A DNA stretch of 64,000 nucleotides from the NCBI RefSeq assembly GCF_056712565.1, contig NZ_CM160072.1; one strand, given 5' to 3'. Under the pieces are notes generated by a model that had not been told where the DNA came from, made no database searches, and was given only the letters and a program-made list of their open reading frames with translations. The position numbers were made by a program, and so were the translations under genes. This document shows positions 16,981 to 18,186 of the stretch, in pieces (within the stretch, counting starts at the first letter, position 1; every line of letters begins with the position of its first letter).

Positions 16981-17439
16981 ATGACAATTTGGGTGGATGC
17001 CGACGCGTGTCCCAATGTAATTAAAGAGATTTTGTATCGCGCGGCGGAACGTATGCAGATGCCGCTGGTACTGGTAGCAAACCAGAGTTTACGCGTGCCG
17101 CCATCGCGATTTATTCGTACGCTGCGCGTCGCGGCAGGTTTCGACGTTGCTGATAACGAAATTGTTCGGCAGTGTGAAGCGGGCGATTTGGTGATCACCG
17201 CAGATATACCTTTGGCTGCTGAAGCCATCGAGAAAGGCGCGGCGGCGCTTAATCCGCGCGGCGAACGTTACACGCCAGCGACCATTCGTGAGCGCCTGAC
17301 GATGCGCGATTTTATGGATACCTTACGTGCCAGTGGGATCCAGACCGGAGGACCAGATAGTCTTTCACAACGTGACCGCCAGGCTTTTGCTGCGGAGCTG
17401 GAGAAGTGGTGGCTGGAAGTGCAACGTAGTCGTGGCTAA
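16981..17439 (+). CDS. yaiI: UPF0178 family protein YaiI
   Basis: ATG at 16981 ([26 protein letters not shown]..., 152 aa); ORF-track start 16861 would overlap proC. Confidence 0.85.
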
Positions 17440-17440
17440 A

Positions 17441-17458
17441 TGTAATTTATTATTTACA
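17441..17458 (+). promoter_or_regulatory. TyrR box upstream of aroL
   Basis: TGTAATTTATTATTTACA matches the TGTAAA-N6-TTTACA palindrome. Confidence 0.65.
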
Positions 17459-17516
17459 CTTCATTCTTGAATATTTATTGGTATAGTAAGGGATGTATTG
17501 AGATTTCCACCTTAAG

Positions 17517-17534
17517 TGGAATTTTTTCTTTACA
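17517..17534 (+). promoter_or_regulatory. second, weaker TyrR-type box upstream of aroL
   Basis: TGGAATTTTTTCTTTACA; GTACTAGT (TrpR-like core) and TATGAT -10 follow within 30 bp. Confidence 0.45.
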
Positions 17535-17621
17535 ATCGAAATTGTACTAGTTTGATGGTATGATCGCTATTCTCATGACACCGGCTTTCGCCGCATTGCG
17601 ACCTATTGGGGAAAACCCACG

Positions 17622-18146
17622 ATGACACAACCTCTTTTTCTGATCGGGCCTCGGGGCTGTGGTAAAACAACGGTCGGAATGGCCCTTGCCGATTCGCTTA
17701 ACCGTCGGTTTGTCGATACCGACCTGTGGTTGCAATCACAGCTCAATATGACGGTCGCGGAGATCGTCGAAAGGGAAGAGTGGGCGGGATTCCGCGCCAG
17801 AGAAACGGCGGCGCTGGAAGCGGTAACTGCGCCATCCACCGTTATCGCTACAGGCGGCGGCATTATTCTGACGGAATTTAATCGTCACTTCATGCAAAAT
17901 AACGGGATCGTGGTTTATTTGTGTGCGCCAGTATCAGTCCTGGTTAACCGACTGCAAGCTGCACCGGAAGAAGATTTACGGCCAACCTTAACGGGAAAAC
18001 CACTGAGCGAAGAAGTTCAGGAAGTGCTGGAAGAACGCGATGCGCTATATCGCGAAGTTGCGCATATTATCATCGACGCAACAAACGAACCCAGCCAGGT
18101 GATTTCTGAAATTCGCAGCGCTCTGGCACAGACGATCAATTGTTGA
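17622..18146 (+). CDS. aroL: shikimate kinase II
   Basis: 174 aa; Walker [36 protein letters not shown]... Confidence 0.95.
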
Positions 18147-18186
18147 TTTTCGAGCGCCTATACTTAACGTTCATCCCGTGAAATAA

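Follow-up and report, generated by a model that had tools for sequence, protein, structure and literature searches.

The promoter-operator region of the aroL gene of Escherichia coli was reportedly described in the work of DeFeyter et al. in 1986, of Heatwole and Somerville in 1992 and of Lawley and Pittard in 1994. In the last of these studies, three TyrR boxes are said to have been found at aroL, boxes 1 and 3 being essential and box 2 dispensable, and a phased DNase I hypersensitivity at this locus reportedly pointed to DNA looping. A TrpR site is said to lie beside box 1, and its effect in vivo reportedly required TyrR: the influence of tryptophan, according to this study, was visible only in tyrR+ cells and needed intact TyrR boxes, and an insertion of 4 bp between box 1 and the TrpR site is said to have increased repression by tyrosine and abolished the tryptophan effect. 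Both in this work and in that of Heatwole and Somerville, the effect of TrpR on aroL was reportedly small and dependent on TyrR.

Negative regulation of aroL(M) by both TyrR and TrpR is documented, with the TrpR link restricted to close relatives of E. coli (PMC5343134), and hexameric TyrR has been described to block the access of RNA polymerase at aroLM and aroF-tyrA (PMC10170061). The known dual repression by TyrR and TrpR, with which a sequence-only reading of the DNA studied here had linked the region upstream of aroL, is thus borne out by these two papers. In a CRISPRi study of 2025, knock-down of tyrR derepressed aroL, and an effect of trpR on aroL was not detected (bioRxiv 10.64898/2025.12.20.695731). 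Reviews and engineering papers on aroL gave no positional detail of the operator, and the sequences of the boxes, when looked for in the full text of papers, gave no relevant hit.

The aroL locus and its TyrR boxes

The DNA analysed here is a stretch of 64,000 nucleotides (contig NZ_CM160072.1 of the RefSeq assembly GCF_056712565.1), to which we refer as the window, and the local gene order in it is proC(-), yaiI(+), aroL(+), yaiA(+), aroM(+). The aroL coding sequence occupies positions 17622-18146 of the plus strand and encodes shikimate kinase II of 174 aa. This gene call, already made in the sequence-only reading, is confirmed by the open reading frame itself, by the gene order and by the matches to E. 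coli genomes, in which the gene is annotated as aroL; homologues of the product are named shikimate kinase AroL. The segment 17380-17660 has a match in 5,425 of 5,426 complete E. coli genomes, and the annotated features beneath it are yaiI and aroL. K-12 coordinates were carried to the window through a gap-free alignment, in which the window and K-12 MG1655 differ at three of 231 aligned positions (17493, 17507 and 17511). The aroL control elements described below lie in the yaiI-aroL intergenic region, which is 182 bp long and AT-rich (36% GC), and the Shine-Dalgarno sequence, GGGGAA (17608-17613, plus strand), forms a conserved block 8 nt before the ATG.

The interval in question is the classical aroL promoter-operator of E. 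coli, and as such it is already known. Being a textbook member of the TyrR regulon, intact and at its expected place, it has little discovery value. What may be of use is the base-level placement of the main promoter, the three boxes, the TrpR site and the probable second promoter, which bears on the engineering of aroL for aromatic compounds.

Two sites in this region are predicted TyrR boxes. Box 3 (TGTAATTTATTATTTACA, 17441-17458) has one mismatch to the TGTAAA-N6-TTTACA consensus and box 1 (TGGAATTTTTTCTTTACA, 17517-17534) has two; the sequence-only reading had recognised the former as near-consensus and the latter as a weaker palindrome, and it was right in both cases. Relative to the two transcription starts discussed below, P1 and P2, box 3 is centred at -45.5 from P1 and adjoins the weak -35 element of this promoter, and the centre of box 1 falls at +31.5 when counted from P1 and at -46.5 when counted from P2. 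A weak, degenerate third box (box 2, TGTATTGAGATTTCCACC, 17494-17511; five mismatches, centre at +8.5 from P1) had been missed, and the earlier inventory of TyrR boxes was thus correct for the two strong ones and incomplete as to the weak one. The G2 and C17 positions, 14 bp apart, are present in all three boxes. Box 2 starts exactly 23 bp before box 1, a distance equal to that in the strong/weak pairs of aroF, tyrP and aroP, and boxes 1 and 2 together make up the arrangement of a strong box with an adjacent weak one at fixed phasing. It is from this 23-bp spacing and from the literature that we take 17494-17511 to be 'box 2'. The boxes sit upstream of aroL, an aromatic biosynthesis gene, and boxes 1 and 3 are conserved along with it.

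To score these sites we used symmetrised TyrR matrices made of 8 or 11 boxes from other promoters of the K-12 regulon, with aroL left out (the boxes came from aroF, tyrP, aroP, mtr, aroG and tyrR; the MG1655 promoters fetched also included tyrB). Among 63,983 window positions, box 3 ranked first, with 21.0 bits, and box 1 second, with 13.6-17.6 bits. A position-weight-matrix scan had been proposed as a check along with the sequence-only reading, and it put the TyrR boxes at ranks 1 and 2 and the TrpR-like site at rank 1 for its own matrix, rather than below threshold. Box 2 scored -1.8 bits in this strain, compared with 3.8-6.6 bits for the K-12 allele; all three differences from K-12 fall in or beside this box and lower its matrix score, and by sequence it fails the match to the TGTAAA-N6-TTTACA palindrome in this strain. 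When sites were counted against the consensus in the 64-kb window, those with two mismatches at most were unremarkable in number (3 observed, 2.56 expected), and one site with at most a single mismatch was observed, the expectation being 0.13. In 20,000 dinucleotide shuffles of the 182-bp intergenic region, a box with one mismatch at most arose in 0.17% and two boxes with at most two mismatches in 0.01%.

Elsewhere in the window, the palindrome TGTATTTTTCCCTATACA (52595-52612) is the third-best match to the TyrR matrix, with 12-14 bits. It is located 36 bp upstream of an open reading frame of 482 aa (52648-54096), the product of which we take to resemble ThiI, and we know of no link between TyrR and this thiI-like gene.

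Transcription starts and the TrpR operator-like site

The main transcription start, P1, is G17495 on the plus strand, and the transcript has a leader of 127 nt. For aroL, Kim et al. (2012; PMC3415461) give a single start, supported by 136 reads, at 405502 of NC_000913.2; the 5'UTR measures 127 nt, and the sequence upstream of the start ends in ...TGGTATAGTAAGGGGTG. Their table places aroL at 405,629-406,153, which fixes the offset to current K-12 coordinates. The start at 405502 is also present in the Cappable-seq data, with an RRS of 4.7 and an enrichment of 6.2 (PMC4782308); these data come from M9-glucose cells, and a score of at least 1.5 together with positive enrichment was required in them. 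Moreover, CRISPRa guides designed against the curated promoter 'aroLp', at its positions -70 and -91, fall on 17407-17426 and 17406-17425 of the window, which puts the curated start at about 17495-17497. The SMRT-Cappable-seq tables contain no entry for aroL. As two data sets and the curated aroLp converge on a start at 17495, the main -10 is the extended element TGgTATAGT (17479-17487, plus strand), which ends 7 nt before the start and includes the hexamer TATAGT at 17482-17487.

The main curated aroL promoter is thus P1, with TGgTATAGT as its extended -10, situated between boxes 3 and 1. The sequence-only reading had named TATGAT as the -10 of aroL and so misassigned the principal element; TATAGT falls inside the interval that it had described as the control region (17441-17560), yet went unmentioned there. 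At -35, P1 has a weak hexamer, TTCATT (17460-17465, plus strand), which matches at three of six positions, is separated by a 16-bp spacer and is poorly conserved; the promoter seems to depend on its extended -10.

Several observations concern the leader RNA. A scan flagged as terminator-like a hairpin with a U-tract at 17505-17531, which corresponds to +11 to +37 of the P1 transcript. In K-12 its stem contains wobble pairing; with the differences found here it becomes a perfect hairpin of 6 bp, UUCCAC-CUUAA-GUGGAA, which is followed by U6CU3, and local folding gave -11.9 kcal/mol here versus -9.9 kcal/mol for K-12. This hairpin is not conserved in Citrobacter, a literature search for Term-seq or attenuation reports on aroL found none, and the structure probably arises from two palindromic boxes lying side by side. 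A further leader hairpin, TCGC-N6-GCGA (17588-17601), is small and conserved, with compensatory changes (C-G to U-A) of the outer two pairs in one and three of 15 species, and in a 3-bp GGG/CCC stem (17608-17618) the GGG at the start of the Shine-Dalgarno sequence is paired. Consensus folding of these two elements yielded small energies (-6.4 kcal/mol), the z-score of the leader fold was weak (-2.3), and no Rfam family scored above threshold on the aroL leader. An Rfam match to GcvB over 17320-17530, that is the end of yaiI and the operator, scored 18.4 bits where the gathering score is 42 (E=0.2) and was taken as chance.

Downstream, yaiA has a start of its own at about 18171, with a -10 element, TATACT, at 18159-18164, just past the aroL stop codon. 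In Cappable-seq (PMC4782308) this start scores 719, whereas the aroL starts reach 4.7 (P1) and 7.35 (P2); in minimal medium, most transcription of yaiA within aroL-yaiA-aroM therefore comes from the internal promoter.

The TATGAT hexamer is indeed present, although at 17559-17564, which is 4 nt beyond the end of the interval 17441-17560 to which it had been assigned. It is contained in the extended -10 TGgTATGAT (17556-17564, plus strand), and this element ends 7 nt before a secondary start, P2, at 17572 of the plus strand, with a leader of 50 nt. P2 corresponds to position 405579 in the Cappable-seq data (RRS 7.35, enrichment 3.9, M9-glucose; PMC4782308) and is absent from the list of Kim et al. 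(2012); a single data set supports this start, and the read score in it is low. A -35-like hexamer, TCGAAA (17536-17541, plus strand; four of six positions), is placed upstream at a 17-bp spacer, and it is not conserved. The combination TCGAAA-17-TATGAT with the upstream TG is the sole sigma-70-like site that the promoter scan reported (9 of 12). To our knowledge, the second start at 17572 is apparently outside the curated description, which names a single 'aroLp'. An extended -10 with a primary 5' end 6-8 nt downstream was found for P1 in two data sets and for P2 in one. Taken as an aroL -10, TATGAT thus holds for the weaker second start at 17572 and not for the main promoter; it is probably the -10 of a real minor promoter, P2, lying under the TrpR operator. 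That P2 functions as a promoter is what we infer, and we lean towards this conclusion without pressing it.

The TrpR operator-like 18-mer, GTACTAGTTTGATGGTAT, is located at 17544-17561, 9 bp downstream of box 1. It agrees with the consensus GTACTAGTTAACTAGTAC at 13 of 18 positions and is the only site in the window within five mismatches of it. The TrpR-like core GTACTAGT, noticed in the sequence-only reading, is found at 17544-17551, within this best TrpR-like site of the window; the string as such occurs once in 64 kb, with 0.62 occurrences expected. The left half of the 18-mer matches at all nine positions and contains CTAG, while the right half matches at four of nine, ATGG replacing the second CTAG core. 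A TrpR matrix trained on the operators upstream of trpL, aroH, trpR and mtr placed the site first in the window at 14.3 bits, compared with 22-27 bits for these four operators themselves. The site is centred at +58.5 from P1. Counted from P1 it covers +50 to +67, counted from P2 it covers -28 to -11, and hence it overlaps the core promoter of P2, not that of P1. With P1 starting at 17495, both box 1 (+31.5) and the TrpR site (+58.5) lie downstream of the start, and repression is therefore not a matter of merely covering one promoter.

Within TyrR box 1, at 17533 of the minus strand, lies an antisense start that Kim et al. (2012, PMC3415461) list with four reads, which is very weak, and assign to proC. 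Its -10, TACAAT (17541-17546, minus strand), is a good one; it stands 7 nt upstream and adjoins the 5' edge of the TrpR 18-mer, with which it has GTA (17544-17546) in common.

Two further candidates were considered for the control region as a whole. A tandem duplication of modules composed of a box and a -10 was rejected: the modules resemble each other in their functional motifs only, and their spacers show no greater likeness than shuffled sequences do (P=0.62). As for an IHF site, the best match to WATCAANNNNTTR in the control region had no fewer than two mismatches, and the potential site of the literature could not be placed.

Conservation of the control elements across relatives

We aligned 260 bp upstream of aroL from six further Escherichia lineages, 18 Citrobacter and one Winslowiella, and added five more distant AroL loci (Intestinirhabdus, Enterobacter cloacae-complex, Kosakonia, Lelliottia and a locus of 74% identity); invariant columns were counted over 25 Escherichia and Citrobacter sequences. 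Conservation is concentrated in four islands with sharp borders, namely box 3, TGnTATAGT, box 1, and the TrpR half-site with TGnTATGAT. In box 3 (17441-17458) 13 of 18 columns are invariant, and in box 1 (17517-17534) nine of 18, these being the arms TGgAA and TTTAC; the G2 and C17 columns of both boxes are invariant across Escherichia and Citrobacter. Both extended -10 elements on the plus strand, TGnTATAGT (17479-87) and TGnTATGAT (17556-64), have eight of nine columns invariant, and in each only the 'n' of TGn varies. The left half of the TrpR site, GTACTAGTT, within 17544-17561, shows 96-100% identity per column. The spacers and the segment 17494-17516 are variable (mean majority fraction 0.58-0.75), and box 2 is not conserved between species.

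Box 3 is present at 16-21 bits in all 25 Escherichia and Citrobacter loci, in the locus of 74% identity and in Intestinirhabdus. At its position, a weaker and different box was found in Lelliottia (13.9) and Kosakonia (9.6), and no box in the Enterobacter cloacae-complex locus. Box 1 is present in 29 of the 31 loci compared, and the TrpR-like site is missing from Citrobacter sedlakii and from the E. cloacae-type locus.

The -10 of P2 occurs across genera as TGGTATGAT, TGATATGAT, TGGTATTAT and TGATATCAT, and the changes are confined to degenerate positions of the extended -10. Where G17558 is replaced by A, as is common, the TrpR score falls from 14.3 to 9.3 or 6.9 bits and the extended -10 is kept. 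In C. sedlakii, where the GTACTAG half-site is lost and the best TrpR score is -2.2 bits, TGGTATGAT is kept and its distance to the ATG is unchanged.

The upstream half of the aroL control region is evolutionarily plastic, and the module composed of box 1, the TrpR site and TGnTATnAT is its more widely conserved half. Lelliottia and Kosakonia keep the box 1-TrpR-P2 module and have no TGnTATAGT following the upstream box; from the E. cloacae-type locus this module is absent altogether. In Klebsiella, the data of Kim et al. (2012) place the mapped start 144 nt upstream, and a TyrR-like box occupies -21 to -4 there. A single TyrR box, followed by GGTATGAT, is present in Winslowiella.

Competing readings and comparison with known systems

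We hold with high confidence that the region is organised as the classical aroL promoter-operator, with P1 bracketed by TyrR boxes, the TrpR site downstream and TATGAT belonging to the minor P2. Here the sequences, matrix ranks, conservation and geometry come from this analysis and the two start sites from public data; repression by TyrR and TrpR and the exclusion of polymerase by the hexamer are taken from the literature, and the footprints, the box numbering and the looping are those reportedly described by Lawley and Pittard. Repression of aroL by hexamers of TyrR that carry tyrosine and ATP, and a small additional effect of TrpR, are established in the literature. In the mechanism that we propose, the hexamer would engage boxes 3 and 1, with help from box 2. 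As judged from the geometry, a hexamer bridging boxes 3 and 1, the centres of which are 76 bp apart, would loop out P1 and thereby exclude RNA polymerase, with box 2 lying over the P1 start and box 3 against its -35 region. The TrpR operator, with its one perfect half-site, would add a small tryptophan-dependent repression. Against this picture count the poor score of box 2 and its lack of conservation, the distance of the TrpR score from those of the four reference operators, the absence of a trpR effect in the CRISPRi study and the single data set for P2.

Other readings need to be weighed against this one. The region could contain a single aroL promoter with TATGAT as its -10, with TyrR boxes upstream and the TrpR operator over the promoter, and both repressors would then act by simple occlusion. 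TCGAAA-17-TATGAT with its TG is after all the only sigma-70 site of the scan, the Cappable-seq score at 17572 slightly exceeds that at 17495, and TGnTATGAT is nearly invariant. However, Kim et al. (2012) list 17495 only, with 136 reads and none at 17572, the curated aroLp is at about 17495-17497, and TGnTATAGT (17479-87), which a lone downstream promoter leaves unexplained, is equally invariant; we regard a single downstream promoter as very improbable. It could also be that TATGAT is no promoter element at all and owes its conservation solely to forming the right half of the TrpR site, the 5' end at 17572 being noise of pervasive transcription. This end was seen in one data set, with a score of 7.35 and in a catalogue with 41% novel starts, and TAT (17559-17561) is inside the 18-bp TrpR-like site, with the last three bases of the hexamer just 3' of it. 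Against noise speak the variation across genera, which touches TGnTATnAT only where this motif is degenerate, the exchange of G17558 for A, which cuts the TrpR score to 9.3 or 6.9 bits and leaves the extended -10 intact, the retention of TGGTATGAT at the same distance from the ATG in C. sedlakii without the GTACTAG half-site, and the positive Cappable-seq enrichment, which indicates a triphosphate 5' end. We are thus doubtful of this explanation, without considering it far-fetched. As to chance matches in AT-rich intergenic DNA, devoid of any regulatory role, the loose window counts are near expectation (3 versus 2.56 and 1 versus 0.62), but two boxes arose in only 0.01% of local shuffles, boxes 3 and 1 rank first and second with independent matrices, the conservation islands are sharp, and published genetics favour regulation. 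The explanation by chance is effectively refuted, and we give it practically no weight.

A more elaborate arrangement is possible as well, although we would put it forward only tentatively: the region might consist of two tandem promoter-operator units, each with a strong TyrR box at a poor -35 followed by an extended -10, and the real target of TrpR would be the minor P2 rather than the main promoter. The position of box 1 at -46.5 of P2 mirrors that of box 3 at -45.5 of P1, and the TrpR site lies over -28 to -11 of P2. In such a case, the tryptophan effect would be seen only in tyrR+ cells because the share of P2 counts only when P1 is shut, and the need of this effect for intact TyrR boxes would be explained without a contact between TyrR and TrpR. 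Likewise, the 4-bp insertion would fall at the -35 position of P2, so that loss of the tryptophan effect and increased repression by tyrosine would both follow. If true, promoter arithmetic would take the place of the proposed TyrR-TrpR protein interaction, and the conflicting reports on TrpR control of aroL would be accounted for. That TrpR might act mainly on the second promoter is the only mildly new idea that we can offer here.

The classical arrangement that we favour compares with described systems as follows. Its locus is that of aroL in E. coli K-12, and in both the start precedes the ATG by 127 nt and the sites comprise two strong TyrR boxes, a weak one and a single TrpR site. The aroF-tyrA region also has three boxes, with start-to-start distances of 52 and 23 bp as against 53 and 23 bp in aroL, but its adjacent pair is arranged strong-then-weak, an order that is reversed in aroL, and, unlike aroL, it has no TrpR site. 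The mtr control region, the other one in E. coli with sites for both regulators, resembles that of aroL in combining a strong and a weak TyrR box with a TrpR operator; however, TyrR activates mtr and TrpR is its dominant repressor, whereas at aroL TyrR both represses and dominates, and the mtr operator matches the TrpR consensus at 14 of 18 positions, with two usable halves, compared with 13 of 18 at aroL. When set beside the operators of trp, aroH and trpR, the aroL site has a left half (GTACTAGTT) identical to the consensus, and like them it overlaps the -35 to -10 interval of a promoter, here the probable P2. It differs in scoring 14.3 bits where those operators reach 22-27 bits, in having no second CTAG core and in being situated at +50 to +67 of P1.
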